Shown here: piece after piece, positions 4,266 to 55,856 of the stretch
Layout: each line of letters begins with the position of its first letter
Numbering within the stretch: position 1 is the first letter of the stretch
Assembly (NCBI GenBank): GCA_002393065.1
Contig: DGGW01000066.1
Location: forward strand, 435-64,434
Length of the DNA: 64,000 bases
Source of the DNA: Alphaproteobacteria bacterium UBA3864
Lineage (GTDB): Bacteria > Pseudomonadota > Alphaproteobacteria > CAAGCB01 > CAG-977
Direction: 5' to 3'
Made by a program: the position numbers and the translations under genes
Notes under the pieces: model-generated
What the model was told of the DNA's origin: nothing
Databases searched by the model: none
The model's input: the letters and a program-made list of their open reading frames with translations, nothing else

Positions 4266-4568
4266 ACTTTCGTTTGTATTTGACGGGTTAATCTGCCATA
4301 CTGTTTCCGTCAGCTTTTCTGACAGGGACTTCACAATCCCTTGCACAAACCGGTGCGGTTCAGAGATTCCGCATCGTCAACAAAACAAAATCTCCCGATC
4401 CATACGACCGGGAGATGGTGTTATGTTCAAGCATTTTGCCAAAAGCATCATGCCGTGTTTGTGCGGTTTGTGAACTCCCGGTCGCCAAGGGGAAAATCCT
4501 CCGGCGGCCGATTGTTTTAAGATTAACACTGTCGGGCGTCAAAACCTGACGATTTAAGGAATGAAAAA

Positions 4569-5573: not shown

Positions 5574-5577
5574 GAAA

Positions 5578-6237
5578 ATGGAAAACACGAAAAATTCTGA
5601 AATTTTCTCTAATGAAGAATTAGGAAAAGCGATCGAAACATACAATCTCTATATTGCAAACAGAGAAACTTTTAAAAAAGTTTACAATGAAGATTGTGAA
5701 TATGATGAAAACAAGTCTTTTATAGAAAATGCAAAAGACGAGATTAACTGTTATACGGCAAAAGGTAAAATAGAAACAACCGTGCCGGATGCAATCATGC
5801 TGGCCGCATATGTTTTTGAAAAAGCGGTTTGTCCTGTTTTGAAAGATAGGGAAATCGAAATTTCAAAGATACATTGGATACCAACGTATGGAGAAGATCC
5901 ATTTCCAGAATTTGATATAAAAATTGAGAATGAAAATTCACAAAAGCCTGTTTTGCTTGTCTTGGATTGCGAAGCTTTTCGCATTGGAGGAGCCTTTGTT
6001 GCAAAAGAAACAAAGAATAATATAACACTTGAAAAAATTTTTAAGGGTAAAAAAGAAGAATTTATAGATAAATCTGATGAAAAGGATTTATCAGAAAATA
6101 TTGTATTTTCAAAAAATAAATTTGAGTTTTCTTCAAATACTCCGCTTTCTTTGGATTGTTTGAACGAAAAAATCATTCCTCAAATCACAAAGGATTGTAA
6201 GAATTTAATAGAGGAGGCGTTCCTTCAGAATAACTAA
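5578..6237 (+). CDS. Hypothetical protein, AT-rich, operonic with 4569-5573 (4-bp gap).
   Basis: SD GAAGGG 6 nt upstream of the ATG at 5578. The ORF-track start at 5512 lies inside the upstream gene. No recognisable domain. Confidence 0.5.
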   Translation: MENTKNSEIFSNEELGKAIETYNLYIANRETFKKVYNEDCEYDENKSFIENAKDEINCYTAKGKIETTVPDAIMLAAYVFEKAVCPVLKDREIEISKIHWIPTYGEDPFPEFDIKIENENSQKPVLLVLDCEAFRIGGAFVAKETKNNITLEKIFKGKKEEFIDKSDEKDLSENIVFSKNKFEFSSNTPLSLDCLNEKIIPQITKDCKNLIEEAFLQNN

Positions 6238-6315
6238 ATCTTTTTCCGGCGGCGGGACGGACTTGCCGCCGGAATGATTTTTACGGTGTTCGAATCAAGC
6301 GTCAGGTTTTGTCGC
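6238..6315 (+). repeat. Copy A of a 78-bp near-identical direct repeat. It contains a GC hairpin (ccggcggc-N11-gccgccgg, 6246-6272) followed by a T-rich tract, so it looks like a terminator plus a conserved downstream leader.
   Basis: About 95% identical to 6833-6910. Both copies sit immediately 3' of a stop codon and 5' of a gene with a similar RBS context (TATGAAAGG...AAATG). Confidence 0.8.
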
Positions 6316-6367
6316 AGATACATGATATAAGGAAGATATCATTCAATCATTATGAAAGGGAACCGAA

Positions 6368-6826
6368 ATGAAAAATACGTTGTTGGACATTATTCAATCT
6401 TTTGAACATCCGATGGATTTGGATGATCAGGAAGTGCGCGAAGTGTTGGATTCGATTGATGATTTAACGCATCGTCAGATAAAAAACGCCGTTGAAGCGT
6501 TGTTGGATAAATACAAAAGTATTCAAAGAGGATATGAAATCAGAGGTGGAATACTTTCCAAAAAGATTGAAAAACTTATCCAAGAACTGGGAAAGAAAGG
6601 TGAAAAACTTTCTCCCGATTCAATAGAGGCAATGAAGGAATTTTTGGAAGAAGAAGGATACGTCGTCTACAAAAACGCTTCAGCGATTGCGATTGATATG
6701 GTCGAATTGCCTCTGAAATTGAGAAATGAGTTTCAGGCGGAAAAGAATCGTATGGGAACAATAACATACGAAAAGAAAAAAGGAATGGTTCTTGATGCCT
6801 TGAAAGAGTGGGCGGGCGAAGAATAA
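6368..6826 (+). CDS. Hypothetical small acidic protein (152 aa), AT-rich, bracketed by the 78-bp repeats.
   Basis: ATG with an upstream GAAAGGGAA. Clean ORF with no recognisable domain. Low GC like the two preceding genes. Confidence 0.5.
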   Translation: MKNTLLDIIQSFEHPMDLDDQEVREVLDSIDDLTHRQIKNAVEALLDKYKSIQRGYEIRGGILSKKIEKLIQELGKKGEKLSPDSIEAMKEFLEEEGYVVYKNASAIAIDMVELPLKLRNEFQAEKNRMGTITYEKKKGMVLDALKEWAGEE

Positions 6827-6832
6827 TTCCTA

Positions 6833-6910
6833 ATCTTTTTCCGGCGGCGGGGCGGACTTGCCGCTGGAATGATTTTTACGGTGTTCGAATCAAGCGTCAG
6901 GTTTTGTCGC
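6833..6910 (+). repeat. Copy B of the 78-bp direct repeat. The hairpin is at 6841-6867 with a G-U wobble-preserving substitution.
   Basis: Same sequence as copy A with three substitutions. The c>t change keeps RNA stem pairing as G·U. Confidence 0.8.
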
Positions 6911-6963
6911 GGGCGGGTGATACAAGGGAAAATATCGTTCGACCGTTATGAAAGGAATATGAA

Positions 6964-7667
6964 ATGACCAAAAAAGCGAAAGTGAAAAACTGGAGAGAGT
7001 TTTTTGAATCCGATCCGAAGGAACTTCCGTTCGCCGACATGAACGTTCGCGACGAAATAGGGCGACGATGCTGATCGGCGCAGCCCGTTCTTCCGCCGAT
7101 GTCGTGCGGCGCATCATCGATGCCGGCGCGGACGTCAACGCGGGGGCGGAGGGCAATTCGATAACCCCGCTGATTTGCGCCGCTGTCAACAGCGCTTATC
7201 CCGCCGTGATCAAAATGTTGGTCAAAGCCGGCGCGGATATCGAGGCAAAAATCAATCCTGAAGGCGAAGACCGCGGAACGCCTTTGCAGGCGGCGTTGGA
7301 AGCGAAAAATTTCAAAATCGCGCAGGCGTTGATCAAAGCGGGCGCAAACGTCAACGCAAAAGACGGTAAAGGAAGAACTCCTTTGATGATAACCGCTTGC
7401 CACGACGGAAACTGCGACATAATAGAGGCTTTGTTAAACGCGGGAGCGAAAATCAACGAAAAAGACAATGAGGGAAGAACGGCATTGATGCGTGCGGCCA
7501 AGTGGGAGACCCCCGATATCGTCAAACTGCTTCTTAAAGCCGGTGCGAACGTCAACGCTGTCGACAAAAAAGGCAAAACGGCTTTGGATTACGCGCGGGA
7601 AAAGGGACGCGACGAAATCGTTTTGCTGTTGGAAAAAGTTGTGGCAGGCGAAACAGCGGAGGAATGA
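6964..7667 (+). pseudogene. Ankyrin-repeat protein gene interrupted by a -1 frameshift near 7060-7068 (the pieces are 6964-7074 and 7068-7667).
   Basis: The frame-1 ORF ends ...DMNVRDEIGRRC*. The frame-3 ORF continues ATMLIGAARSS... and then 6 clean ANK repeats. Joining at g7062 restores the ANK consensus DEIGATMLIGAA. The break lies in a GGG run, so a sequencing error is possible. Confidence 0.5.
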
Positions 7668-7752
7668 CAAGGACCGATGACGGATTGATCGCCGCCGGAT
7701 AGAGATTTAAAAGGGATTTGGAAATCATTGATTTGTTAATCGTCAAAACAAT

Positions 7753-7786
7753 AAAAAAGCTTTCGACCGATCGGTCAAAAGCCTTG
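7753..7786 (-). terminator. Rho-independent terminator downstream of tRNA-Gly: a palindromic stem around gaccgatcggtc followed by a U-run on the minus strand.
   Basis: Minus-strand reading: gcttttgaccgatcggtcgaaagcTTTTTT. Confidence 0.6.
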
Positions 7787-7790
7787 AAAT

Positions 7791-7865
7791 TGGAGCGGGC
7801 GATGGGAATCGAACCCACGACATCAACCTTGGCAAGGTTGCGCTCTACCCCTGAGCTACACCCGC
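7791..7865 (-). tRNA. tRNA-Gly (anticodon GCC).
   Basis: The reverse complement reads gcgggtgtagctcaggggtagagcgcaaccttGCCaaggttgatgtcgtgggttcgattcccatcgcccgctcca. It is a cloverleaf with a GTTCGATTC T-loop and ends in CCA. Confidence 0.9.
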
Positions 7866-7922
7866 ACTCCCTTTGAACAGTTGCGATTATATATAAATAA
7901 AAACGATATGCAAGAACTTTTT

Positions 7923-10900
7923 TTAAAAAATATTCGGTACCAGTTTTCGGATGACGCCGGGGGCGACGGCCGACAACGGATTGACGGATATTTCCGGCGT
8001 CGGCAGGACGCCTTCGATTTTATAAGAAACGCCGATCAGCCCGCCGCCTTTTTCGCCCGTCAGCATTTTCCCGACAAGGGGGACTTTGCCGACCAACCCG
8101 TTCACGCCGTAAAAAGGCATCATCGTTCCGGTCAGGTCCAAAAAGCTTTTTTGACCGTTATAACTTCCTTCCAGCGTGATGCCCAGCGACGACCCCGCCA
8201 CCAATCCGTCGTTTACGGTTAATATCCCGTTGTTATGGGCGAATTGCGCTTCCGCTTTTTCGAAGTGCAGTCCTTTCCCCGTCAGCGTGTCGATCAGCCC
8301 CGTGAACGACGTCAGACGCAACAGACGCGTTAAAAGCGGCTGTTCTGCCAATCTGAAATCTTCGATTTCGAGCAATCCGGAAGCGCCCTTTTCGGTGTTG
8401 TATTGCCCTTTGATTTTAATTTTTCCGCCTTTGACGGTTGACATGGATCCCAGCAGTTTCATCAGAGAACCGGCGTCGTCGGACGTGAAAGCGAAGGCGG
8501 ATTCGTTGTTTTTCGGATCGGGATAAAACTTGAAACGGAACGGCGTGCGTTTTTCGCCGATTTTTCCCGTCGCGTCGATTCGTTGCGGCGCGCCGCCCTT
8601 CAAAACGGCCGCGAAAGCATTGTCTTCGGCGGCGGAATCCGACAACCAGACTTTGTTGAAAACGGCGTTGATGACGTAAAGCGGTTCATCGGCGTTTTTA
8701 TTCGGTTCGTCCTTGTCGCTATTGATTTCTTTTCCGGTTTCGTCCCCGCTTTTTTCTTGCTTTTTTATCAGTTGCGATAGATCCAGCGACAATCCGTTTG
8801 CGTCAATCCGGTTTTTTCCTTTGACATTGAAACGGATGCGGGCTTTCAGATCGGTTTTACCGGCGACCAGAACGGGAACGTTGATGCGGGCGATATTTCC
8901 GTCGGGAGCGAAATCCATGGACGTTTTGACGATGTTTCCGGCTTTGTCCGAAACGGTAATGTCCGGTATGGCTTTAAGGGCGTTGTTTTCGAACGTCATT
9001 TTCAGGCGCGCCGTTCCGCCGGTTTCCGCTTTTTTCACCCAGTTGATCATGGGGAAATCGAGCGCGGCGGGAGTAAGATCGGCGTCGGCCGACGCTTCAC
9101 CCGTCCCGTTTCTGAACAGGCGTAAAAGAAAGCGCACCGGAACCGTTCCGACAACGTACGGCGTAGCGGCGTAATCGACGCCTATATCCTTTCGCGCGGC
9201 GTCGGTGACTTGTCCCGTTACGGCCAGATCCGTCGAAACGTCTTTCTGACCGGTGAAGTCCTGAAACAGTTCGGCGTGAACGGCGCCTTCCCGCGCCAGA
9301 GCGTCGGCCGTCAGTGTCAGTCCTTTTTCGTTGACGGAAAGATCGGCGTCGACATCCTGCAGGGCGATGAAGTCGAAAGGATAGCCTTTAAACGCGGCCT
9401 TGTCGGTTTTCGCGTCGACCGAGAACGCGACATCTTCCGGTTTTAAATCGTCTTTGAGCGGGAAGGTCAGCTTTAACAATCCCGTCGCCGGTCCGGACAG
9501 GTTTTCGGGCCCGATTTGCGTCGTTTGGCGTGTCAGACCGAGCCCCGGCGATAAAACGACGGACATCGCGTCGGACAAATCGGCGACTTCCAGCGGAACG
9601 GACAGGTCGAAATAGGGGACGGGACGATCCAGCCCCGTAAAAGCCGCCCGCGCGTGACGGGATACGAGACCGGCGGATTTCGCGGAATAAATACTGATGA
9701 CGATATCCTTTAAAGAATAGTCGATTTTACCGTCGGCGTCCGTTACGACGGGCATGCCGTCCATGTAGGTCAGGGCGACGTTCCGAAGACCGTGCGTTAT
9801 GTCAAGCTTTGTTACGCCGAACCCCGTCCCGTCGTCGCCGAACGCCATATACAGCGACGCGTTCGGAACGACGCCTTCTTTAACGTTGCCGACGACCCAG
9901 TCGTAAACGTCTGGAATACTGCTTCTCGGCCAATAATCGCGCGCCTGATCAATGGAAAAGTTTTCGGCCGTTGCCGTCAAAACGGCGTTCAGCAACGCCG
10001 GATTCTTTTTGGTCAGAGCGGCGTTGACGTTATCGACTTTGAAATTCCCGCGAAGTTTCGCGCCGCGTCTTAAATCAACGGCGATGGCGGGCAGGGAGAG
10101 CGTTTTGTCGCGTTTGTTCCATTCTCCGTCGATTTTGAAAGAGGCGACGTCATAATATCCGCCGATATCCCGCGGCAGAACGATGTCGCCTTCCGTCCCC
10201 GTCAGAGTGAAAGAGGCCTGACGGAGGATGTCGTGCCATTGAAACTTGTCCGACGGATACCGGAAGGGGCGCGTGTCGATTTGCAGGGACAGCGCCAAAG
10301 TCAGCGGGACGGACACGCCGTTCAGCAAAGGATATTTTTCCGCGCCGCGCAGCTTTTTCAAATCGACGTCGCTGATCAGCAGTTTTATCGGAACGAACGC
10401 CGTGTGAGACCGCCATCGCGCCGACAAGGCGGCATGAACGGGGCGACCGGCCGTTTCGGCGGTGAAATCGGCGGTGACTTTGTAACGTCCGAAACGGCGG
10501 ACATAGGAAATCGAAAAAGACGGGAAATTGAATTTCGAATTGTTGGCCCGATCGGTGATTCCGATGCGGGCATTCAGAATTTGAAAACGTGTCGGCTCGG
10601 TGTGGCGTCTGAAGATGTCGGCGATCGTCGGCAGCAAAGGCTCTTCTCCCGTTTCGGCGGATGTTTTTTCTTCGTCGCTTTCCTGCTCGGAACCGGCGTT
10701 TAAAACGATGTCGACCTTCGGATCGAAAACGGCCAGACGGCGCGGCGCCACTTTGCCGCGCAATAACGATAAAAGGCGGAAAACGACCGTCGCTCGCGGG
10801 ACGTCCGCCGCGAAAGCATCTTTTTTGGAAGCGTGCAGTTCGGAAATTTCGATATGGACGGGGCTGGACCATTTGTCCCAAACCAGTCGGGCGTCGCCGA

Positions 10901-25067: not shown

Positions 25068-25673
25068 ATGAAAAAAATGCTTATGCTTGTTTTGTTGCCG
25101 GCGATGACGGGCTGTATCCGTTCCGAAGTCAAGGTGACCGCGCCCGTTCGGCAGGATGTGCCGGTCAAGGAAGAAACGAAAAAAACGCATTCTCCGTCTG
25201 CTTCTTCCTCTTCCGTTTCGGTGCCCGAAAACGTTCAATCTTCCGCCGGTGAAGAAAAGAAAGGATACGCTTCAAGCGATTTGCGCCGTTCCGCCAATAC
25301 GGTCGTCAACAATATGATCCGTTCCGGCGCTTTGGACAATCCTTCCGGGGACAAGTATGTCGTAACGACGGGACGTATCGTCAATAAAACGAAAGAAACC
25401 TTTAAAACGGACGAAATCGTCGCCGATATCAAATCGGCTCTGGCCGTTACGCGAAAAGTCAGGGTTGTCGGTTTGGCATCGAAGAACCCCGCGCCGAAAT
25501 TGATCGTGTCGGGATCGATTACGCACCGAATCGGTCATGTGCGCGGAAAAGAACGCCACGAATACTACTTGCGGCTGAATGTTACGGACCTGGGGTCCGG
25601 CACATCGCTGTGGGAAGGCGAAACGCCGATCGTCCGCAGAACGGCCGGCGTTAAAGATAATAAGACCAGGTAA
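25068..25673 (+). CDS. Lipoprotein, LpoB/COG3417-like.
   Basis: Lipobox LLPAMTGC. Ser/Pro-rich linker. C-terminal globular domain (VVNNMIRSGALDN...KYVVTTGRIVNKTKE...RVVGLA). Confidence 0.5.
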   Translation: MKKMLMLVLLPAMTGCIRSEVKVTAPVRQDVPVKEETKKTHSPSASSSSVSVPENVQSSAGEEKKGYASSDLRRSANTVVNNMIRSGALDNPSGDKYVVTTGRIVNKTKETFKTDEIVADIKSALAVTRKVRVVGLASKNPAPKLIVSGSITHRIGHVRGKERHEYYLRLNVTDLGSGTSLWEGETPIVRRTAGVKDNKTR

Positions 25674-26247
25674 TCGTATTTTCGCTGGGGGCGCAAACCG
25701 CGATGGAATCGGTCATCGACGGCAGCAACAATTTCGCCGGCGCTTTTCCTTCCCAGGTGAAAACGGTCGAATTCGTTTGGATCTGTTTCAAACCGGACGA
25801 CGGGTCGGATCCCCAATCGCCGGCCAGCAAATCGTTACAAATGCGAGGCGGAATGCCCTTGTAAGTCAGGGAGAAATACGGATAAGGCGAAGAACCGTCG
25901 CACGGGCTCGCATCGCCGGGGTTGCATAAAGCGAAAACCATTTCTGTTCCATACGGCGTGAAAGCTTTTTCGTCATTCGCGTCCGTCTGGTCGTAAACTC
26001 CCAATTTCAACAAATATGTCGGCGTCATTTGCGATGTTTCGGTGCTCGGTCTCGTTTGATCGGACGCGAAAACGGCGCGGGCGTTTTTTAAAATTCTTTG
26101 GACCTGCGCGACGGATTGTTGAGTTTTCATCTGGTTCGTCGCGTTCCTTATCATTGAAAAAACGCCGCCGCCCAAAACGGCCAGAAATCCGATAAAGGCG
26201 ATGATTTCCATCATGGTGTATCCGCGTTCGTCGCTTTTGATTTTCAT
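25651..26247 (-). CDS. Type IV pilin/pseudopilin-like protein with an N-terminal prepilin methylation motif.
   Basis: MKIKSDERG|YTMMEIIAFIGFLAVLGG is a G-[FY]-T-[LM]-x-E class III signal. SD AAAGGACAG. The 3' end overlaps the LpoB-like gene by 23 bp. Confidence 0.6.
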   Translation of the reverse strand: MKIKSDERGYTMMEIIAFIGFLAVLGGGVFSMIRNATNQMKTQQSVAQVQRILKNARAVFASDQTRPSTETSQMTPTYLLKLGVYDQTDANDEKAFTPYGTEMVFALCNPGDASPCDGSSPYPYFSLTYKGIPPRICNDLLAGDWGSDPSSGLKQIQTNSTVFTWEGKAPAKLLLPSMTDSIAVCAPSENTITWSYYL

Positions 26248-26260
26248 TATGTCTGTCCTT

Positions 26261-26539
26261 TCAAACCAAAATGTTCAGATACGTTCCGCGCGGCGCGTTC
26301 AAATAATACCGGCGTCCGTCAGCTTCGACAAATTCCGATCGATCCGTTGCAAAGGGAACTTCCCGTCCGTAGATGCGATTGTTCGGGGCGGTATCGGCGG
26401 ATGACGCCGAACGGGAAACGGGCGTCCTCTGCCTTTCGACGGGTAGCCTGTCCGCCGCCGAAACGGGCATTTTTACGGAAAAATCGGACATTTTCCTGTC
26501 CTTTCGGTAAACATTATTTAACTTAAATAGAGTATACAC
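26261..26539 (-). CDS. Hypothetical small protein upstream of the pilin gene. Doubtful.
   Basis: ORF only; it ends 13 bp before the pilin start. No motif. Confidence 0.25.
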   Translation of the reverse strand: MYTLFKLNNVYRKDRKMSDFSVKMPVSAADRLPVERQRTPVSRSASSADTAPNNRIYGREVPFATDRSEFVEADGRRYYLNAPRGTYLNILV

Positions 26540-26553
26540 GAAAAAGGGATGGA

Positions 26554-27183
26554 TTGAAACACGGGATTTTTACTGTGACGGATTTATTTTTTACGGAAAC
26601 GATCGTTACGCGATTCAGTCATGATTTGGCCGGTGTGATGAGCGCCGTGTCGAACAGCTTGTCTTTGTTGGCCGATTTCGGCGGCGCCGATGAGGAAACG
26701 TTGGCGTTGGCGACGGCGAACGCGGAAACGTTGCTGGCCAGATTGCGCTTTTTCCGTGCGGCGTTCGGATCGGACGGCCCGATAACGGATTTGACCGCCG
26801 CGAAAAAGATAACGGAAGATTATTTGAAATCCGTTGAAAACAGATCCGTGCGTTTGTCCTGCGTTTGGAAAACGGACGAAGATTTGCCTTTGCCGTTTTG
26901 CCGACTGTTTCTGCTGGGGGCGCAGATCGGTGCCGAAACGCTGATTCGCGGCGGCTCGATAACGATCACGGCGTCTTCGTCCGGCATCGGCGTCCGCGCC
27001 GAAGGCCCCGTCGTAAAAAGCGATAACGACGCGGTCGCTTTTTTGAAGGGAACGCTGGAAAAACCGACGCCGAAAGCGGCGCCGGCGATGCTTTCCGCCG
27101 CTTTTGCCGCGGAAAACGGATTGACGGCGAAAGTCGATTCGGACGATACTTACTTTAGTCTGACTTTCTTGCACAACGGATGA
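26554..27183 (+). CDS. chpT: ChpT-like histidine phosphotransferase (DHp-like domain plus a degenerate CA domain).
   Basis: Collinear with Caulobacter ChpT: IVTRFSHDLAGVMSAVSNSLSLL matches LAARLCHDFISPASAIVSGLDLL, LARLRFFRAAFG matches LQFTRVAFG, and LGAQIGAETLIRGGS matches the pseudo-ATPase region. TTG start. Confidence 0.7.
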   Translation: MKHGIFTVTDLFFTETIVTRFSHDLAGVMSAVSNSLSLLADFGGADEETLALATANAETLLARLRFFRAAFGSDGPITDLTAAKKITEDYLKSVENRSVRLSCVWKTDEDLPLPFCRLFLLGAQIGAETLIRGGSITITASSSGIGVRAEGPVVKSDNDAVAFLKGTLEKPTPKAAPAMLSAAFAAENGLTAKVDSDDTYFSLTFLHNG

Positions 27184-29207
27184 ACGGTATGGCGGAGCCC
27201 TCGGAAAAAGAAGCAAAAGGCCTGACAAATCTGCGCAAGCTGTGGGCGGCGCAGGAAAAAAAGGTCAATAAGCTGAAGCAGGAATTGGAAAAAGCCGATT
27301 CCGACAAGCAGGCTCAACTGGCTAAAAAAGACCGCGATATCGCCGCGTTGGAAAAAAAGCTGGCGCACAGCGGCGAAAACATCGACACGTTGAAGGAAAA
27401 GCTGGACGCCTACCACCGCAAACATTTGGAAAACACCGCCGTTCTGGAAAACAGAAATAAAGAGCTTCGCGAACTCAAGGAACAAATCGCGTTGCTGGAG
27501 GCGGAATTAAACGCCGAACGCGAAACCGTCGTTCGTAAAAACGCCGAATTCGAAGCGTATAAAACGGAAGTCGAACAGTCCGAAAACGAGTTTTCAAAAC
27601 TGAAATCCGATTATGACGAAGTTCTGGACCATTTGTCCGAACTGCGCGTTTCCTATGCCAAAGCGACGGAGGAAAAAGCCAGTATCGAAGGACTGAACGC
27701 CGAATTGAACAATAAATTGCGCCAGACCGGTTTCGACGTTCAGGCCCTTTCCGCCAAACTGGAGCAAACGGAACGCAAGCTCGACGCCGAAAAGCAGGGC
27801 ATCGCCAAAACCCTGGCGGAACTGCGCGCGTCCGGATGGCCGCAGGATATGTATTCGCTTCGCCGCGATCTGGTCGATATTTTGATGCCGGACGGAACGG
27901 AAAAAAGCATCGTCGCCGCGCAACGCCTGTGCGGCACGTTCGGCCGGATGCAGATGAAGCCGTTGGATGAAATCCGTACGTTCGTCGACGGTTTCGTCGT
28001 CGCCAAAGCTTCCGATCTGGTCAAAAAATACACGTTGACGATGAATATTCCCGATACGCCCGTCGATATCGGCGTTTTGAGCGTGCTGAAAGACGTGTTG
28101 AGTTGTGCCATCGAAAATTCGCTGGAGTACGCTTTGCCCGACAAAGCCAAAGACGGCGTTGCGATGACGTTTGACGTTCGCGACGACGGGTCCAATCTGT
28201 TCTGCACTTTTTCCGACAACGGTGCGATATTCCTGTATGAAAAGATCCGCAGCGTCGTTCGCAACGCCGGTTGGATATCGACGGGAACGGCTTTGGAAAA
28301 AGAGGATCTGCTCGACTATCTGTTCCATCCCGTCGCTTCGGGCGGCAACGCCCCCGGCGGATTGATCCGCGCCGCGGAAGCCATCGAACGGTGCGGCGGA
28401 CGGATCAATGCGACCTTTGACAATGGTTTCATCCTTCGTTTCGTATTGCCTAAAAAATACATTTTTGACAAACAATTGATTTACTGGGCGGGCGAAACGC
28501 GATGCGCTTTGCCGCTGTCCTCCGTCGAAGAAGCGTTCTTTTTGTCGGTCGACGACGCGCGTAGCGGGATGATTACGCGAAACGGCAAGAAGATCCCCGT
28601 CCTGTCCGTTTCTCAACTGCCCGACGCAAAGGCCGTTCTGGGATTGCTGATTCATACGGGGCCTTTTTATTTTCTGATGCCGGTTGACCGGATCGACGAC
28701 GCCGAAACGTTCCTGTCGTTTTTGCCTGACAGCGACGGATCGCCGTACTTCCGTTCGTGTCTGACCGTCGAAAGCGGCAAGCCGTGCCGTTGGACGGATC
28801 TGGCGTCTTTCCTGAAAGAAACGATGCCGCCTTTGGCGACCCGGACCGAAGAAGACGGGGAACCGGACATCATTACCGCGCCGGACGAAACCAAAGAACC
28901 GTATATGATCTTCAACAGCGAACCGCATCGTTACGGCGCCGTTCCCGTCAACCGTGTTCTGAAGGTCGAATCCATGCATTACGGCCGGACGATCGACGAC
29001 AAGGGGCGGTCCGTGTTTTTGTCGGACGGACGCGTTCTGCCGTTGCGCGATTCGTCGGGCAAACAGAATTTCCCGTACGCCGAAGTCGTTTTGATTTTTG
29101 CCGATTTCGCATTGGCCGTTCAGAACGTCGCCGATTTTAAAGAAGACGAAAAAGGCTTGCGAAATTTGGATTATATGGGACGGAAAATCGCCGTCGTCGA
29201 TTTCTGA
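27180..29207 (+). CDS. CheA-like kinase lacking an HPt (P1) domain: N-terminal coiled coil of about 200 aa, an HATPase_c domain (P4-like) and a C-terminal CheW-like domain (P5-like).
   Basis: Its ATG overlaps the chpT stop (ATGA). N-box-like LSCAIENSLEYAL. G1-like VRDDGSNLF. G2-like HPVASGGNAPGGLIRAAEAIERCGGRI. CheW-like segment (IYWAGETRCALPLSSVEEAFF...KKIPVLSVSQL). Confidence 0.65.
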   Translation: MNGMAEPSEKEAKGLTNLRKLWAAQEKKVNKLKQELEKADSDKQAQLAKKDRDIAALEKKLAHSGENIDTLKEKLDAYHRKHLENTAVLENRNKELRELKEQIALLEAELNAERETVVRKNAEFEAYKTEVEQSENEFSKLKSDYDEVLDHLSELRVSYAKATEEKASIEGLNAELNNKLRQTGFDVQALSAKLEQTERKLDAEKQGIAKTLAELRASGWPQDMYSLRRDLVDILMPDGTEKSIVAAQRLCGTFGRMQMKPLDEIRTFVDGFVVAKASDLVKKYTLTMNIPDTPVDIGVLSVLKDVLSCAIENSLEYALPDKAKDGVAMTFDVRDDGSNLFCTFSDNGAIFLYEKIRSVVRNAGWISTGTALEKEDLLDYLFHPVASGGNAPGGLIRAAEAIERCGGRINATFDNGFILRFVLPKKYIFDKQLIYWAGETRCALPLSSVEEAFFLSVDDARSGMITRNGKKIPVLSVSQLPDAKAVLGLLIHTGPFYFLMPVDRIDDAETFLSFLPDSDGSPYFRSCLTVESGKPCRWTDLASFLKETMPPLATRTEEDGEPDIITAPDETKEPYMIFNSEPHRYGAVPVNRVLKVESMHYGRTIDDKGRSVFLSDGRVLPLRDSSGKQNFPYAEVVLIFADFALAVQNVADFKEDEKGLRNLDYMGRKIAVVDF

Positions 29208-31018: not shown

Positions 31019-31465
31019 TCAGCCCAGCAGGTTGACCATCTTCGTCGCGACGGAAGCCGCGTCGGCGTCGGAATTCGCAAACAGTTCGCCGAAGTTGGCG
31101 CGGGCGATCAAACCGACCTTTTCGGAAGACGTGCCGACGATGGAAGCGATCGTGTCGATCGTTTCGCCGTGTCCGCGGGAAGCGTCAACGGCGAACTGTT
31201 CCAAGTTGTTTTCCAGGAACGAGAACACCAGCTTGCCCGTGCCGCCGGAGATCGTGTCGTTCTGACGGCAACCGGAGGTTCCCGTCGTGATGCCGAACGT
31301 CTGGCTGTAGAACGTGCCGTTCGTCGTAACCGCCAAGGTCTGCGGAACGATGCCGCTCTGGCCTTTCCAAACGATGGCGCCCAAACCGCAGCCGACGCTG
31401 TCGGCCTTCGCTTCGGAAGCCATGAACGCCAAAGCCAAACCGCAACAAACCAATACTTTTTTCAT
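31019..31465 (-). CDS. DUF3015-like small secreted protein, copy 1 of a tandem duplicate.
   Basis: Signal peptide MKKVLVCCGLALAFMASEA. GCGLGAIVWKGQSG...TTNGTF..QTFGITTGTSGC motif series. Confidence 0.6.
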   Translation of the reverse strand: MKKVLVCCGLALAFMASEAKADSVGCGLGAIVWKGQSGIVPQTLAVTTNGTFYSQTFGITTGTSGCRQNDTISGGTGKLVFSFLENNLEQFAVDASRGHGETIDTIASIVGTSSEKVGLIARANFGELFANSDADAASVATKMVNLLG

Positions 31466-31639: not shown

Positions 31640-32086
31640 TCAACCCAACAGGTTGACCATCTTCGTCGCGACGGAAGCCGCGTCGGCGTCGGAAGTGGAA
31701 AACAGCTCGCTGAAGTTGGCGCGGGCGATCAGACCGACCTTTTCGGACGACGTGCCGACGATGGAAGCGATCGTGTCGATCGTTTCGCCGTGTCCGCGGG
31801 AAGCGTCAACGGCGAACTGTTCCAGATTGTTTTCCAGAAACGAGAACACCAGCTTGCCCGTGCCGCCGGAGATCGTGTCGTTCTGACGGCAACCGGAGGT
31901 TCCCGTCGTGATGCCGAACGTCTGGCTGCCGAACGTGCCGTTCGTCGTAGCGGCCAGAACCTGCGGAACGAGACCGCTCTGACCTTTCCAAACGATGGCG
32001 CCCAGACCGCAACCGACGCTGTCGGCTTTCGCTTCGGAAGCCATGAACGCCAGAGCCAAACCGCAACAAACCAATACTTTTTTCAT
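31640..32086 (-). CDS. DUF3015-like small secreted protein, copy 2 (about 93% amino-acid identity to copy 1).
   Basis: Same length and sequence as 31019-31465 with about 10 substitutions. The upstream region is also duplicated. Confidence 0.6.
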   Translation of the reverse strand: MKKVLVCCGLALAFMASEAKADSVGCGLGAIVWKGQSGLVPQVLAATTNGTFGSQTFGITTGTSGCRQNDTISGGTGKLVFSFLENNLEQFAVDASRGHGETIDTIASIVGTSSEKVGLIARANFSELFSTSDADAASVATKMVNLLG

Positions 32087-44419: not shown

Positions 44420-46123
44420 TTACTTCTTTTCGGCTTCTTTCTTGGCAATCGCGGCGCCCAGAATATCGCCCAGAGAAGCACCCGAATCGGTCGAACCGTA
44501 TTCGGACAGAGCTTCTTTTTCCTCGTCGATTTCGCGCGCTTTGACGGACAAGGAGATCTTGCGCGTCTTGGCGTCAATCGCGGTGACCTTCGCATCGACT
44601 TTGTCGCCGACGGCGAAGCGTTCCGGACGCTGTTCCAAACGGTCGCGGGACAGATCGGCTTTGCGGATAAAGCCTTTCGCGCCGTTGATGTCGACTTCGA
44701 TGCCGTTGTCGGCGATCGCGGAAACGACGGCCGTAACGACGGCGCCTTTCTTGACTTCCTGCGTCGCGCCTTCGAACGGATCGGAGGTCAGCTGTTTGAT
44801 GCCCAGAGAGATGCGTTCTTTTTCAACATCGACATCCAACACTTTCGCTTTGACGACGTCGCCCTTCTTGTAGTCCTTGACGGCTTCTTCGCCGGCTTTG
44901 TCCCAAGACAGGTCGGACAGGTGGACCATGCCGTCGATGTCGCCGTTCAGGCCGACAAACAGGCCGAATTCCGTGATGTTGCGGATTTCGCCTTCGATGA
45001 CGGATCCCGCCGGATGCGATTCGGCGAAGGATTCCCACGGATTGGCCAGGCACTGTTTCAGACCCAGAGAAATGCGGCGTTTCTGAGAATCGACTTCCAA
45101 CACCTGCACTTCGACTTCCTGCGACGTGGAAACGATCTTGCCCGGATGGACGTTTTTCTTGGTCCAGCTCATTTCGGAAACGTGGACAAGGCCTTCGACG
45201 CCCTGTTCCAGTTCGATGAACGCGCCGTAATCGGTGATGTTCGTCACGCGGCCGGTCAGCTTCATGCCGATCGGATACTTGGCTTCGACGCCCGTCCACG
45301 GATCGGCTTCGAGCTGTTTCATGCCGAGGCTGATGCGCTGCGTTTCGGGGTTGAAGCGGATGATCTGCACCTTGACGGGCTGACCGATGGTCAGGACTTC
45401 GGACGGGTGGTTGACGCGCTTCCAAGAAATGTCGGTCACGTGCAACAGGCCGTCGACGCCGCCCAAATCGATGAATGCGCCGTAATCGGTGATGTTCTTG
45501 ACGACGCCGTCAAGGATCTGCCCTTCGGACAGGTTCTTGATCAGTTCGGAACGCTGTTCGACGCGGGTTTCCTCCAGAACGGCGCGGCGGGAAACGACGA
45601 TGTTTCCGCGGGCGCGGTCCATTTTCAAAATCTGGAACGGCTGCGGGTTGCCCATCAGCGGGGTGACGTCGCGCACGGGGCGGATATCGACCTGCGAACC
45701 GGGCAAGAACGCGATGGCGCCCGACAGGTCGACGGTGAAGCCGCCTTTGACGCGGCCGAAGATGACGCCGTTGACGCGTTCGTTGTTGTTCAGCGCTTTT
45801 TCCAATTCGTTCCAGGCTTCTTCGCGGCGGGCTTTTTCACGGGACAGAACGACCATGCCGTCCTTGTCTTCGTAGCGGTCGATGAAGACATCGACTTTGT
45901 CGCCGACTTTCATTTCGGCGTTGAAGCCGAATTCGCGGCGCGCGATGCGGCCTTCGGATTTCAGACCGACGTCAATCGTGACGAAATCGTCGGACAGAGC
46001 GACGATCGTTCCTTTGACGACGGATCCTTCCAATCCGTTGTCTTCGCCGTAGATTTCATTGAACAGATCGGCGAAATTTTCTTTCATGGCCGGGATTTCG
46101 GCGGCCGGATTTTTTGTACTCAT
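44420..46123 (-). CDS. rpsA: 30S ribosomal protein S1.
   Basis: Six S1 domains. 567 aa. Unmistakable homology (FNEIYGE..., GxV repeats). Confidence 0.95.
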   Translation of the reverse strand: MSTKNPAAEIPAMKENFADLFNEIYGEDNGLEGSVVKGTIVALSDDFVTIDVGLKSEGRIARREFGFNAEMKVGDKVDVFIDRYEDKDGMVVLSREKARREEAWNELEKALNNNERVNGVIFGRVKGGFTVDLSGAIAFLPGSQVDIRPVRDVTPLMGNPQPFQILKMDRARGNIVVSRRAVLEETRVEQRSELIKNLSEGQILDGVVKNITDYGAFIDLGGVDGLLHVTDISWKRVNHPSEVLTIGQPVKVQIIRFNPETQRISLGMKQLEADPWTGVEAKYPIGMKLTGRVTNITDYGAFIELEQGVEGLVHVSEMSWTKKNVHPGKIVSTSQEVEVQVLEVDSQKRRISLGLKQCLANPWESFAESHPAGSVIEGEIRNITEFGLFVGLNGDIDGMVHLSDLSWDKAGEEAVKDYKKGDVVKAKVLDVDVEKERISLGIKQLTSDPFEGATQEVKKGAVVTAVVSAIADNGIEVDINGAKGFIRKADLSRDRLEQRPERFAVGDKVDAKVTAIDAKTRKISLSVKAREIDEEKEALSEYGSTDSGASLGDILGAAIAKKEAEKK

Positions 46124-46264
46124 TTAAAAACTTCCTTCAAAAACTTTATTCATGCCTTCCGGTTGGATCCGGAGGTCTGCGCGGATCAAGACCTGTACGG
46201 AATCGCCCGCGTCCGCGGTTCCGTTCAGCCCTTATAGAGGAAAAACGCCTTTTTTGCAAGGATT

Positions 46265-46756
46265 TTATGCCGGTTTTATCGCTTTCCACGCTTTTATTTT
46301 GTCGGCGAAAGTCAGCCGCGCGTTCGCGGGCGACGTCGACGGCAGGGGAACAAGCGTCAGTTTTTGAACGAAAGCTTTGTTTTTAAACGCCGTCATAAAG
46401 CTTTGATACGCTTTGTTGCCGTTGAAATACAACGCCGTGATGTTCGGATGAAGTTTCAGAAAAGATTCGAAATCGTTGGCGACGGCGTTGCGGATGTCGG
46501 AATCAAGGCTGCCGTCGCGGTCGCAGGACGCGAACACGTCCCATAGACCGACGCCGTTTTTCAACAGAAGGGACAATTTTGCGTCGTAGCTTTCGAACGG
46601 GTACGTCGCCCCGAACAGTTCCGCGGCGATTTTCCAGAAAGCGTTGCGCGGATGGGCGTAATACTGGTGCGCCTTCAGCGACGCCTCCCCCGGCATCGAT
46701 CCGATGATCATTCGGGCGGTCCGTTCGTCGGCGACGGCGGGAAAACATACGGGCAT
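46265..46756 (-). CDS. DNA-deoxyinosine (hypoxanthine) glycosylase, UDG-superfamily.
   Basis: MIIGSMPGEASL...YYAHPRNAFW motifs of the TIGR04274-type family. 163 aa. Confidence 0.7.
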   Translation of the reverse strand: MPVCFPAVADERTARMIIGSMPGEASLKAHQYYAHPRNAFWKIAAELFGATYPFESYDAKLSLLLKNGVGLWDVFASCDRDGSLDSDIRNAVANDFESFLKLHPNITALYFNGNKAYQSFMTAFKNKAFVQKLTLVPLPSTSPANARLTFADKIKAWKAIKPA

Positions 46757-47095
46757 GAAAATCGCTCCTTTCGGGAAAGATTGTATCGGAACGGCCCGTT
46801 TTTTTGCAAGACGGATATTTCCTTTCTTTTTTATCGGAAGTTTGATAAACTCTTATTGTCTTCGGAAGCGAAGACAAGGGCGTCAGAAACCCTTTCAATA
46901 GTAGTCGCATGGTGTATGGCGACTCATAAATTATGCGCCGATTTCCCAACCGTAAAGGGCGGGTGTCGGCGTCTATAAGGCTATGCGCGAAAAACGCCGA
47001 GCCGTCTTTACTATTGAACGGTTTCTGAACACTCCGCCCACCTTTTTTCAAGGTGGGTTTTGTTCTGTACGAGGTTTTATAGGAGAGTTCAGAGA

Positions 47096-47383
47096 ATGAA
47101 AAAATACGTTTTAATTGCAACATTATGCGCTTTAAGCGGAGCTTGTCAGCCTGCCGCTCACTCATTGATTAAAGTTTCTTGGGAACAGGACGGATATGAT
47201 TGCCTGTATAAGGAGTCTTTCGGGGAAATCAGGAATGAATGGAATTTAGTCAAATTTGAAAATAGGGAATACGTAGGTTCTATTAAAGAAATCAAATACG
47301 GCAATACTCCCTGCTCAAAAATTATTGACGCCGAACTGAAAAACAATACGAATAAAAGTGCTATTACAAATCAATTTCATTAA
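47096..47383 (+). CDS. Small lipoprotein, hypothetical, in an AT-rich islet.
   Basis: SD AGGAGAG 8 nt upstream of the ATG at 47096. Lipobox LSGAC. Confidence 0.45.
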   Translation: MKKYVLIATLCALSGACQPAAHSLIKVSWEQDGYDCLYKESFGEIRNEWNLVKFENREYVGSIKEIKYGNTPCSKIIDAELKNNTNKSAITNQFH

Positions 47384-47400
47384 AGGATGGGAAGTATAAG

Positions 47401-50385
47401 ATGGAATGGAAGGATATTATAGGCAAAACGGTTTATCATAAAGTTTTTGGAGAAGGAAAAATAAAATCTTGTGATGGAAAACGCATAGAGGTTAGCTTTG
47501 GCGTTGGAGAAAAAAAGTTTTTTTTCCCAGAGGCTTTTAAGTATGGAGATTTATATGAACGGAAAGATCAAGAACTTCTGAAACAACAACGTCAAGAAGA
47601 GGAAAGGCTCCGTCAGGAAGAGGAGCGAAAGGCTTGGAAACATTTTGAGCAACAACGACGGGAAAAGGAAAGACGCAGTCAAGAAGCGCTGAGACGTCGG
47701 CGGGAAGAGGAGCAAAAGGCCCGGGAACTCCGTGAGCAACAATGGCGTGAAGAGGAAAGGCGTCGTCAGGAAGAACTGAGACGTCGGCAGGAAGAGGAGC
47801 GAAAGGCTCGGGAACTTCGCGAGCAACAACAATGGGAAGAAAAAAGGCGTCGGCAGGAAGAGGAAAGACATTGGCGGAAAGTAGTAGAAAAAGAGCTGAA
47901 TAGTCCTTTGACCGACGAACAATGGGCCGCGATTTACAATGATGACGACGCGTCTTTGATCGTCGCGGGGGCGGGGTGCGGCAAAACGACGACGGCTTTG
48001 GGAAAAATCGTTTATCTGGTCAGGTCCGGCAAAGCGAAACTGGAAGAAATTTTACCGATTTATTTCAATAAGAAAAACGCTGACGAAATGAACGGTAAAA
48101 TCATAGATATTTTCGGGAATACGCAAAAAATAGCTTACGACTATCACAGTGTGGGCTTGAAGTTTTTAAAAGAATCCTGCCCTGTAGAAAAAACTGAAGA
48201 TATGATACGCCGGATATTTAAAGATTTTCTCGATGATAAAAAAAGCGAAGATTTAATCTGCCGGATTTTTGATTTCATCGTGCGATATATGTATACCGAT
48301 AATGAACGCACGATGGAAATGTTTCCGAAAGGCTTTGACGATTTGTCCGTTGAAAAAAAAGTTGAAGCGTTGGAAGATGATTGCGAGACGTTAAACGGTG
48401 AACGTGTCAAAAGTCCGGCGGAGGCCGTGATCGCGAATTTCCTGTTTACGCATCACATCCCCTATGTTTACGAGAAATGGTTTAAATCTTGTTATCCTGA
48501 TGCATATCCGATGAAACCGGATTTTTATGTGCCTTTGGGGGACGGAACTGATCCGAAACACGCCGTTTGGATCGAACATTGGGGCATTGAATTCGACAGT
48601 TACGGAAATGAACGGGCCAGATGGCTGGATGAAAAGGGGGAAAGGGATTATATCGAAGACAAGAAACAGAAGCTGGCGGAATATAGAAAAAACAATGTCA
48701 AACTGATCGAGTTGTTTTTATCCGATTTTAAAGACGACACGCTGATCGATAAATTGAAAACGAAATTGGAAGAATTCGGCGTGGATACAAGCCGGGGAAT
48801 GACCCGCGATGAAAGAATAAGGTATATTAAAAAACTGATTAAAACAAAAAAATTAGAATCATTTCAAAATTTTGTTCAACGGTGTATAGAGCTTTTAAAA
48901 AGCAATAAACACACATCGCAGGATATTCCTAAAATTCATAAAAACGCTCTTCGCGATTTGGAAAAACGCGAAATGGAAAGGGTGAAAGAATTTTACAGAA
49001 TCGTCTATTGCGTTATGAAGGAATACGAAAGACGGCAAGGGGAAGAGAACGGTATTGATTTTGCGGATATGCTGATAAAAGCGCCGGCGAAAATCGCCGA
49101 CGCGGAGCTTCGGTACAAATACATCATCATTGACGAATATCAGGATATTGACGAACTTGATTATGAACTGATTTCCGCAATTCAGAAAAAAACGAACGCG
49201 AAAATCTGTTGCGTCGGCGATGATTGGCAGGCGATTTATCGTTTCAAAGGGGCAGATCTTGGTTTCTTTTCAAATTTCGGGAGGTATTTTCCGAATTTCA
49301 AAACATACCGTGTTCAGCAAACATTCCGAAACGGCGCGCCGTTGATCGATATTGCCGGAAAGTTTATTCAAAAAAACGACCGGCAGTTAAGAAAGACAAT
49401 TCGTTCCGATAAAAGTACGTTCCTGAAGGCCGTCCGCTATCATGAATTTGAAAGCCGGGGAAGAGAAAAGGACGTAGATCGATTGAACTGTCTGTTCGAT
49501 ATTTTAAACCAGCCGGACAAGGATAATTTTCTTATCATCGTCAGAAACAATAGCGATTTTAACAAATATTTTGATTGTTTGGGCGAAGACGTTTCCAGTC
49601 TTTCGGACGTTGAAAAGGCTTTGCGGCGAAAGTTTTCCAAAAATATCGAAGTTCGGACGGCACATAGGTCAAAGGGGCTGGAATACGATTATGTCGTCGT
49701 TTTCAATACAGCCTGCAGAATGACGGGTTTCCCGTCTCTGATGGATGATGATCCCGCGATTTCGTTTTTGTTGCCGGAAAAAGAGGAGTATTCTTTGGCG
49801 GAAGAACGGCGGTTGTTTTATGTCGCTCTGACGCGGGCTAAAAAAGGATGTTATCTGCTTGTTCCGAAATTTATGCCGTCGTGGTTCTTTTTTGAGATTC
49901 AAGACGCTATCGGCAAAGACAATATCTTTGATTCCGACAACGCCTTGCTGGCTACTTGCCCATGGTGCGGTAGGGAAATGGAACGCAAACAAAGAAAGGA
50001 TGAAACAAAAGCAATATTTTACAGCTGTTCATCCTATCCCGATTGCAAGTATTCTGCGCCGAAAGGCTTTATCGTTAAAAACTGCGATGATGTCGAAAAG
50101 CTGATAAAAGAAAAAGCCGAAAAACAAAACAGACCGGCATCCGTGTATGTCTATGATGAACGGAAAAAAGAGCTCGACTTCATGGATTGCACGCTTTTTG
50201 AGAATGCGAAGGATAAACGCCCCGCGGACCGAAGCGTTGATGTTTATATCGTGATCAATGATGTAAAGAATTGTTCCGAAGTTAGAAACTTTTTGATAAA
50301 ATTAAACCGCGAACCCGTTTTGTTGAATTTATCCGAAAACGATATACCGGAACAATTCATAAAAAACGTTTTCGGAACGCTGTGA
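47401..50385 (+). CDS. UvrD/PcrA-like superfamily-1 helicase (994 aa) with N-terminal charged tandem repeats, an inserted Vsr/DUF559-like PD-(D/E)xK endonuclease domain and a C-terminal topoisomerase-type C4 zinc ribbon.
   Basis: Walker A LIVAGAGCGKTTT. Motif II IIIDEYQDI. Motif III CCVGDDWQAIYRFKGAD. Motif VI YVALTRAKKGCYLL. Internal nuclease region SPAEAVIANFLFTHHIPYVYEKWF...PDFYVP...VWIEHWGIEFD...KQKLAEY...LIEL. Zinc ribbon CPWCG...YSCSSYPDCKY. Low GC. Confidence 0.8.
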   Translation: MEWKDIIGKTVYHKVFGEGKIKSCDGKRIEVSFGVGEKKFFFPEAFKYGDLYERKDQELLKQQRQEEERLRQEEERKAWKHFEQQRREKERRSQEALRRRREEEQKARELREQQWREEERRRQEELRRRQEEERKARELREQQQWEEKRRRQEEERHWRKVVEKELNSPLTDEQWAAIYNDDDASLIVAGAGCGKTTTALGKIVYLVRSGKAKLEEILPIYFNKKNADEMNGKIIDIFGNTQKIAYDYHSVGLKFLKESCPVEKTEDMIRRIFKDFLDDKKSEDLICRIFDFIVRYMYTDNERTMEMFPKGFDDLSVEKKVEALEDDCETLNGERVKSPAEAVIANFLFTHHIPYVYEKWFKSCYPDAYPMKPDFYVPLGDGTDPKHAVWIEHWGIEFDSYGNERARWLDEKGERDYIEDKKQKLAEYRKNNVKLIELFLSDFKDDTLIDKLKTKLEEFGVDTSRGMTRDERIRYIKKLIKTKKLESFQNFVQRCIELLKSNKHTSQDIPKIHKNALRDLEKREMERVKEFYRIVYCVMKEYERRQGEENGIDFADMLIKAPAKIADAELRYKYIIIDEYQDIDELDYELISAIQKKTNAKICCVGDDWQAIYRFKGADLGFFSNFGRYFPNFKTYRVQQTFRNGAPLIDIAGKFIQKNDRQLRKTIRSDKSTFLKAVRYHEFESRGREKDVDRLNCLFDILNQPDKDNFLIIVRNNSDFNKYFDCLGEDVSSLSDVEKALRRKFSKNIEVRTAHRSKGLEYDYVVVFNTACRMTGFPSLMDDDPAISFLLPEKEEYSLAEERRLFYVALTRAKKGCYLLVPKFMPSWFFFEIQDAIGKDNIFDSDNALLATCPWCGREMERKQRKDETKAIFYSCSSYPDCKYSAPKGFIVKNCDDVEKLIKEKAEKQNRPASVYVYDERKKELDFMDCTLFENAKDKRPADRSVDVYIVINDVKNCSEVRNFLIKLNREPVLLNLSENDIPEQFIKNVFGTL
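47580..47880 (+). repeat. In-frame tandem repeat with an 87-bp period (29 aa, ELRRRQEEERKARELREQQW-type), 2 clean plus about 1.5 degenerate copies, inside the helicase gene.
   Basis: 47689-47775 matches 47776-47862 at about 88% nucleotide identity. Confidence 0.7.
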
Positions 50386-52316: not shown

Positions 52317-52450
52317 GATTTCGATCCTAAAAAATCCGATGGCGGAACTATACTGTAAAAGGCTTGTTCCGTCAATGTTTTTTGCTCGTTGACTTGAACC
52401 GAAAGGGATTTTACCATAAAGCACCTTGTCATGTGTCGGAGAACCCGGAA

Positions 52451-55855: not shown

Positions 55856-55856
55856 A

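Follow-up and report, generated by a model that had tools for sequence, protein, structure and literature searches.

What does a CheA-derived kinase module do when it has no HPt (P1) domain of its own and is encoded directly behind a homologue of the phosphotransferase ChpT? The question is raised by a 64,000-nucleotide (nt) stretch of DNA from Alphaproteobacteria bacterium UBA3864 (assembly GCA_002393065.1, contig DGGW01000066.1, positions 435–64,434 of the forward strand), which is called the window below and to which all coordinates refer. The window contains a gene for a ChpT-like protein of 209 residues (26554–27183, + strand) and, overlapping its stop codon, a gene for a CheA-like protein of 675 residues (27180–29207, + strand). 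Both proteins belong to known superfamilies. What is new is a CheA lineage with a pseudo-HPt domain or none, a coiled coil in the place of P2 and P3 and one and a half CheW-like domains, together with the obligate pairing of this lineage with a ChpT homologue. No description of such a pairing was found in the searchable literature (ChpT with CheA, PF10090, RF32). The gene pairing suggests a rewired phosphorelay, and our tentative answer, to which we give rather less than an even chance, is a split kinase that crosses classes, in which the CheA-derived P4 domain would phosphorylate His23 of the ChpT-like protein in trans.

The ChpT-like and CheA-like proteins

The ChpT-like protein is recognized by the Pfam profile PF10090 (HPTransfase) with 61.7 bits against a cutoff of 22.9 (E 7e-17). 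The match covers the pseudo-CA domain, residues 83–199, at profile positions 4–122 of 123. In the PDB the protein matches ChpT from Brucella (4qpj, 4.8e-10) and from Caulobacter (4fmt, 5.9e-6; 4fmt and 4fpp both ~6e-6). Its segment ‘RFSHDLAG’ aligns with ‘RICHDIIS’ of 4qpj and ‘RLCHDFIS’ of 4fmt, with His23 (codon CAT, 26620–26622), on the DHp-like N-terminal helix, aligned to the phospho-histidine of ChpT. The surrounding H-box, TR[FLMI][SC]HD[LMI][AS]G, is kept in the ChpT-like proteins of all loci of the clade described below. Scores against the NCBIfam ChpT equivalogs fall far under the cutoffs (NF046025, 52.3 versus 225; NF046018, 45.4 versus 240), so this is a diverged member of the family rather than a demonstrated functional equivalog. 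The gene starts with TTG, preceded by AAGGGA, and its stop codon TGA (27181–27183) overlaps the CheA-like start codon ATG at 27180 as ATGA, within ...CAACGGATGAACGG.... Collinearity with ChpT including the phospho-histidine helix, and the overlap of stop and start, had both been claimed in an initial annotation of this DNA, and both are borne out. An open reading frame (ORF) of 214 codons lies antisense to the ChpT-like gene (26584–27228, − strand) and encodes an Arg-rich, low-complexity product; it is the longer of the two, so a naive longest-ORF caller takes this shadow ORF over the ChpT-like one.

The CheA-like protein is more diverged. A Pfam/NCBIfam scan of its 675 residues gave no HATPase_c, CheW or Hpt match and coiled-coil noise only, and by sequence the sole relevant match in the PDB is CheA, at E ~1. 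Because the window protein has no direct Pfam match, its domains were assigned via relatives, profiles and fold. BLASTP aligns it with a true CheA (P0003) across P4 and P5 at 2e-16, and members of its family other than the window protein do match HATPase_c and CheW in Pfam (CheW down to 1.6e-12). A profile of 31 family sequences matches a CheA from a protein database at 4e-42 and Escherichia coli CheA (6s1k_A) at 1.1e-30, the latter in an alignment that runs from the P3 end across P4. Comparison of the family with the CheA P0048 by hhalign gives a probability of 99.7% over 417 columns. AlphaFold2 (AF2) models were built from 13-sequence alignments. The model of the window protein has a mean predicted local distance difference test score (pLDDT) of 74, with 77–90 in the P4, P5 and C-terminal blocks. 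Foldseek places CheA P3–P4–P5 structures at the top of the list for this model (6s1k_A, 3e-19; 1b3q, 4e-18), and P4 alone superimposes on the Thermotoga maritima CheA P4 structures with a template modelling (TM) score of ~0.8. The protein is clearly homologous to the P3-end, P4 and P5 regions of CheA.

The chain begins with a helical, coiled-coil region spanning residues ~18–217 (27231–27830), which is modelled as two long helices (18–93 and 105–217) separated by a low-confidence break and followed by an α/β domain and then by β domains. The α/β part corresponds to the end of P3 and the HATPase_c-like P4 (residues ~224–425; 27849–28454). The next segment, residues ~430–550 (28467–28829), is the CheW-like P5 domain, assigned by BLASTP, hhalign and hidden Markov model alignments to CheA P5, and is β-rich in the model. 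The P3 dimerization domain itself gives no match to PF02895. Alignments to CheA start at the end of P3 and the Foldseek alignments span P3–P4–P5 chains; in the AF2 model the position of P3 is occupied by the long coiled coil, which in the relatives is longer still (~250–380 residues). The last ~100 residues (572–675; 28893–29204) form an all-β domain with pLDDT 79–89 that has no direct Pfam match. By hhalign their counterpart in P0048 is the first half of its second CheW-like domain, of which they are probably a truncated version.

This architecture agrees with the initial annotation on the ~200-residue N-terminal coiled coil and amends it elsewhere. The proposed CheA-type HATPase_c domain with N, G1 and G2 boxes is present as a P4 homologue with an N box (Asn313) and a G1 box (Asp346-Asn-Gly), and its G2 box is degenerate. 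The C-terminal CheW-like domain is there as P5 and is not the end of the protein, the additional β domain following it. The Pfam search that the annotation had proposed for both proteins recovers HPTransfase in the ChpT-like one; for the CheA-like one, HATPase_c and CheW are confirmed indirectly.

The P4 domain and the vestigial P1 domain

Thirteen columns are invariant in the 31-sequence alignment. They include Asn313 of the N box (28116–28118), Asp346 of G1 (28215–28217) and Gly394, a remnant of G2 (28359–28361). The family N box reads ..L.DN..RYA where E. coli CheA has HLVRNSLDHGIE, G1 reads sDNG..F against DDGAGL, and the F box has LFHP in place of IFAPGF. In G2, the GRGVGM of E. coli CheA is cut down to R..GL, and the window protein has GGNAPGGL at this place. 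The Mg2+ ligand Asn and the adenine-binding Asp are invariant and therefore strongly constrained; no such constraint is seen on the glycine-rich lid or on the histidines specific to CheA. Binding of nucleotide by P4 is plausible.

No HPt domain is detectable in the window protein, either by the Pfam scan or by alignment with its relatives, as the initial annotation had maintained. All relatives outside the window lineage do open with a conserved N-terminal domain of ~110 residues, with the consensus M.DL...FL.EA...L..LE..LP.LE.NP.D...W..L..FF.F.RS.APF.GF.R.YRL; the proteins without it are the window protein and its relatives of 87–99% identity (L001, P0001). By hhalign, residues 1–118 match the Pfam-confirmed Hpt domain of P0048 (96.9%, E 2e-10). 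A profile search of the PDB with the N-terminal domain finds T. maritima CheA P1 (2ld6, 3e-3; 1tqg, 8e-3) together with designed proteins on that fold, and the family profile is also collinear with E. coli CheA P1. The AF2 model of one relative (P0006) shows four main helices in this region at pLDDT 73–88. Profile and model alike thus identify the domain as an HPt/P1 homologue.

The phospho-histidine is not retained in this domain. Its column is variable among the relatives (Asp 5, Lys 4, Glu 4, Gly 3, Asn 2, Arg 2 and Ser 2, plus others) and holds His in 1 of 27, and the equivalent of CheA Lys51 is Arg in 26 of 27. The rest of the domain is well preserved, with a mean column identity of 55% and with R47, F52 and R57 invariant or nearly so. 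Nowhere across the 31 CheA-like sequences is a histidine invariant, the best being that of the F-box ‘LFHP’ in 25 of 31. Judged by these alignments, the CheA-derived protein has no histidine able to accept phosphate, which leaves His23 of the ChpT-like protein as the one conserved phospho-acceptor of the module. From the window lineage both the P1 vestige and roughly half of the coiled coil have been deleted. Three independent assemblies show this deletion, which supports its being real, and the loss of the vestige in this lineage is recent. A second apparent loss, in the database protein P0007, was rejected: a scaffold gap (a run of N at 5312–5955 of L038) in the repetitive coiled coil splits the CheA-like gene, so that the protein falsely appears P1-less, and the P1-like domain is encoded upstream.

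Distribution, linkage and possible function of the pair

Searched exhaustively with HMMER (E <= 1e-10), 1.84 billion cluster representatives yield 13 clusters of the CheA-like family, all from metagenome-assembled genomes (MAGs) of gut and rumen Alphaproteobacteria. They comprise the window's own cluster (P0001, 99% identical), 11 full-length relatives of 837–945 residues and one fragment, and each holds 22–209 members in gut metagenomes. Beneath them the ranking falls to generic CheAs, and the best match after the family, P0017, is an ordinary CheA encoded within a full che cluster and unlinked to chpT. Less exhaustive searches see little of the family. In word-indexed homologue searches the coiled coil dominates and 2–4 relevant matches emerge, the alignments contain no conserved stretch of 7–10 columns usable as a search motif, and the single protein as a query against genome contigs gave no matches. 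None of the CheA-like records among the matches listed carries a name given by its source; with this and with scores below Pfam thresholds, the family would be missed by routine annotation.

The distribution at species level was surveyed with the ChpT-like motif FFRAA[FY]G in one genome per GTDB species. It returned 27 loci, all in MAGs of uncultured Alphaproteobacteria from gut, rumen or faeces, among them UBA6411, HGM16788, RGIG5000, ‘Acetobacter sp. CAG:977’ and ‘Rhodospirillaceae UMGS1296’. The clade carrying the pair is one that we take to be the GTDB order RF32. One locus bearing the label ‘Limosilactobacillus gorillae’ (L011; CAVCSV010000003.1) is an alphaproteobacterial ChpT/CheA-like locus, the C-terminal region of its CheA-like protein being 73% identical to P0005, so that the label is evidently wrong or the bin contaminated.

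In 26 of 26 informative species loci (in the remaining one of the 27 the contig ends early), and in all metagenome contigs examined, the ChpT-like gene is followed immediately by the CheA-like gene on the same strand. This answers affirmatively the question of co-conservation posed by the initial annotation, so that neither of the two outcomes which it named as fatal to a hybrid relay, an HPt domain in the kinase or a pair not kept in relatives, was seen. The intergenic gap is 3–57 nt, the window having the 4-nt overlap. The flanks vary, with insertions of 5′-nucleotidase or tRNA methyltransferase genes upstream and with a neighbouring pilin-like gene undetected in six taxa, and the pair is never separated. 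In a mirror-tree analysis of 28 taxa, with three neighbour genes regressed out, the distances of the two proteins covary (partial r 0.535, permutation p 5e-4); the corresponding values for the control pairs ChpT–Lnb and ChpT–LpoB are −0.12 and 0.10. We tentatively regard the two genes as one operon encoding a two-protein signalling module specific to this gut and rumen clade, a view that we hold with less than even confidence.

In the mechanism that we favour, the coiled coil would dimerize the CheA-like protein and P4 would bind ATP through the invariant Asn313 and Asp346. P4 would then phosphorylate, in trans, His23 in the DHp-like helix of a ChpT-like dimer, and the ChpT-like protein would in turn hand the phosphoryl group to a receiver, perhaps of the CtrA/CpdR type, encoded elsewhere. 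Through its CheW-like domains the kinase would be linked to an input or a scaffold. A split kinase of this kind is the most economical explanation, since the module offers one conserved acceptor histidine and one GHKL domain that keeps the core nucleotide ligands. The mechanism is also plausible in view of the division of labour between CheA3 and CheA4 (PMC6829392) and of the separability of the EnvZ DHp and CA domains, which, according to a statement in PMC3591291, work in vitro when split. The further step, that ChpT in this clade now takes its phosphate from a CheA-derived ATP-binding module, be it in addition to CckA or in its place, we consider unlikely on present grounds.

Several observations weigh against this explanation. 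The GxGxG of G2 is reduced, the second glycine of G1 is variable and the equivalents of CheA His405 and His413 are lost, so P4 may be able to hold nucleotide but not to catalyse transfer, or may have lost binding as well. Canonical ChpT takes its phosphate from the receiver domain of CckA (PMC9430884). CckA may well be encoded elsewhere in these genomes. Queries with CtrA and CheY sequences found no receiver-domain gene either in the window or at any locus of the clade, and neither cckA nor ctrA is present in the window or the clade loci. We know of no CheA-class P4 that phosphorylates a DHp-type histidine. The covariation is suggestive only, because the distances of LpoB and Lnb also covary (0.63), and it may only mirror a contrast between fast-evolving cytoplasmic proteins and the envelope-protein controls.

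The same degeneracy of G2 and loss of the catalytic histidines of CheA would be expected if the CheA-derived protein transferred no phosphate at all and instead bound, localized or tuned the ChpT-like protein within a canonical CckA–ChpT–CtrA/CpdR relay. In that case the coiled coil, vestigial P1, P4 and CheW-like domains would serve as a scaffold or allosteric regulator of the kind represented by DivL, a pseudo-histidine kinase of the same pathway (PMC9430884). The strong conservation of the His-less P1 points to a binding role other than phosphotransfer, and the long coiled coil with its two CheW-type interaction domains, the conserved operon and the covarying distances all fit. Set against this, the Mg-ligand Asn and the adenine-binding Asp are invariant across sequences of ~20–37% identity, which suggests that nucleotide binding is still under selection. 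The window lineage has moreover kept the rest of the protein after dropping half of the coiled coil along with the P1 vestige, so that the conserved core is P4–P5 and not the scaffold-like parts. We judge such a pseudokinase role somewhat unlikely in itself and nearly as likely as the split kinase. The partner of the CheA-like protein might also lie elsewhere, the protein serving as a P1-less kinase for an unlinked HPt or CheA3-like protein, or for a chemosensory or type IV pilus pathway, with the ChpT-like gene an ordinary cell-cycle chpT that shares its promoter. Split CheAs normally use a CheA-type P1 partner (PMC6829392), receptor arrays are the usual docking site of CheW-like domains, the divergent operon includes a pilin-like gene, and the closest canonical CheA, P0048, has the architecture Hpt–P3–P4–CheW–CheW. 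This alternative is improbable, as no che, methyl-accepting chemotaxis protein (MCP), CheW, HPt or receiver gene was found in the 64-kb window or the clade loci, the family's own P1 lost its histidine rather than being split off, and the gene stays within 3–57 nt of the chpT-like gene, or overlaps it, in every species. More improbable still is an adjacency without functional connection, merely inherited as gene order in a strongly syntenic clade. The flanking AsmA, LpoB, pilin-like, small ORF, Lnb-like, DUF3015 and DUF2157 genes are syntenic in the same loci, and because the whole neighbourhood is syntenic, adjacency alone cannot separate functional coupling from inherited gene order. Yet the pair shares its strand and a tiny or negative intergenic distance in all species, it stays together where the flanks rearrange, and the residual covariation of distances is specific to it.

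To our knowledge, the one role established for ChpT is that of middle link in the CckA–ChpT–CtrA relay, and CheA kinases are not known to phosphorylate anything but HPt (P1) domains. If the split kinase is real, it would be the first CheA-class P4 to phosphorylate a DHp-type histidine in trans, and a chemosensory-type input (CheW-like domains and coiled coil) would be wired into a CtrA-type cell-cycle or motility relay. The module would then represent a new way of feeding a DHp-type phosphotransferase, a natural cross-class split kinase; under the alternative without phosphotransfer it would be a pseudokinase of a new kind that regulates the cell-cycle relay of Alphaproteobacteria. Either outcome would broaden the wiring rules of two-component systems and would provide a first handle on signalling in an abundant, uncultured gut and rumen lineage.

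Flanking DNA and related systems

A conserved intergenic element of 30 nt (26507–26536, + strand) precedes the ChpT-like gene. Its consensus in the clade is GTAAAGATTGTTTAACTTAATTAGTATACA, and the window copy reads GTAAACATTATTTAACTTAAATAGAGTATA. The element occurs once per locus (L001–L035), 18–65 nt upstream of the ChpT-like start, with 0–2 mismatches in most species, whose ChpT-like proteins are only 41–57% identical to that of the window. It is thus far better conserved than the coding sequences and is presumably the promoter or operator of the ChpT-like operon, of the divergent operon or of both. Eight of nine positions match the CtrA box TTAA-N7-TTAAC. Exact TTAA-N7-TTAA(C) sites number 0 in the whole window, against 0.3–0.7 expected by chance; the element offers no evidence for a CtrA regulon. 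A scan of the region for sigma-70 promoters and terminators did no better than with shuffled sequences. In most relatives (L002, L006, L007 and L015–L034; for example, L020 around 5960–5975) we observed a second short element, AAGTCGATAC / AAGTCCATC, ~20 nt downstream of the first and before the ChpT-like start. It is absent from the window and L001, both of which have a shorter leader.

Divergent from the pair is a small ORF of 76 codons (26261–26491, − strand) that is present in 30 of 30 taxa. Its start is probably the ATG at 26491 and not the GTG at 26539, and the strongly conserved C-terminus of its product carries the motif FVExDGKxYxLNAPRGTYxNILV. Pfam and NCBIfam scans assign it to no family. 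Its distances covary with those of the ChpT-like protein when neighbours are controlled for (partial r 0.37, permutation p 0.002), and it may belong to the ChpT/CheA-like module. Downstream of it lies the type IV pilin-like gene (198 codons; 25651–26247, − strand), whose product has a prepilin-type N-terminus (RG/YTMMEI), weak matches to GspG and to prepilin-peptidase-dependent proteins, and a conserved GDWGSDPSSGLK motif; one relative has weak Bundlin/PilS matches. By tblastn the gene is found in 24 of 30 taxa, syntenic with the pair.

Other features of the window are more distant. Two tandem DUF3015 genes (31019–31465 and 31640–32086, − strand) encode nearly identical products of 148 residues; L001 also has two copies, and L002, L003 and L007 have one. 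Eukaryote-like repeat proteins are encoded at 482–2398, 7068–7667, 52364–57503 and 59937–60755. Several contain ankyrin repeats, among them a tandem pair of 1163 and 548 residues, and one contains Sel1 repeats, which suggests a host-associated lifestyle. Two stretches at ~4001–8000 and ~46001–50000 have a G+C content of 41–47%, compared with ~54% elsewhere, and a strong positive GC skew. The first lies beside the only tRNA gene of the window (7794–7865, − strand) and holds ORFs without family matches along with an ankyrin protein, and the second carries a UvrD-like helicase with a Top1 zinc ribbon. Both may be islands acquired by horizontal transfer.

Among known proteins, CheA of E. coli and T. 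maritima (6s1k, 1b3q, 2ch4, 1i58) shares with the family the collinear order of P3 end, GHKL-type P4 and P5, and the relatives also retain the P1-homologous four-helix domain at the N-terminus. Unlike CheA, the window protein has neither P1 nor P2, and P1 in the relatives has no phospho-histidine. P3 is replaced or extended in the family by a coiled coil of 200–380 residues, the full G2 box and the CheA-specific N-box histidines are missing, and half a CheW-like domain is added. The family gene stands outside any che cluster, and the window protein falls below Pfam thresholds.

Split CheAs are the nearest functional parallel. In Rhodobacter sphaeroides, CheA4, a P3–P4–P5 kinase, phosphorylates the P1 domain of CheA3, which consists of P1 and P5 and is both substrate and phosphatase (PMC6829392), and split forms make up ~2.3% of CheAs (PMC3591291). 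Like them, the window kinase module, having no phosphorylatable P1, would have to act in trans (PMC6829392, PMC3591291). The acceptor in R. sphaeroides is a genuine CheA-type HPt domain and both genes lie in a chemotaxis cluster, whereas here the sole candidate acceptor is a DHp-type ChpT homologue and the locus has no che or Hpt gene. The comparison with split, P1-less CheA drawn in the initial annotation therefore fits the window protein as a P1-less P4–P5 module and does not extend to its relatives, which retain a P1/HPt homologue lacking the phospho-acceptor histidine.

ChpT is a kinase-like dimer with a DHp-type histidine and a degenerate CA domain (PMC3433190). The ChpT-like protein resembles ChpT of Caulobacter crescentus and Brucella abortus (4fmt, 4fpp, 4qpj) in belonging to PF10090, in its equal length and in the His-Asp pair on the first helix. 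It differs in that its H-box has no Pro at His+5 (HDLAGV versus HDIISP) and in its constant co-transcription with a CheA-derived gene. We know of no canonical chpT that is co-transcribed with such a gene.

For a scaffold or regulator, the functional analogue is DivL, a pseudo-histidine kinase that has lost its phospho-acceptor histidine and regulates CckA and the flux through the CckA–ChpT–CtrA relay (PMC9430884). The CheA-like protein is likewise kinase-derived and likewise lacks an acceptor histidine. DivL, in contrast, is a HisKA-type protein in which Tyr replaces the His; its target is CckA, and it lacks a CheA-type P4 or P5, a coiled coil and an HPt vestige. In the plant pseudo-HPt protein AHP6 and in the Ser/Thr-containing Xpt domains of Pseudomonas ChpA, the HPt fold is kept and the phospho-histidine is replaced. 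The N-terminal domain of the relatives of the window protein likewise retains the HPt fold with its phospho-histidine replaced; unlike in AHP6 and the Xpt domains, no single residue has become fixed at the replaced position, and the domain has proved dispensable in the window lineage.

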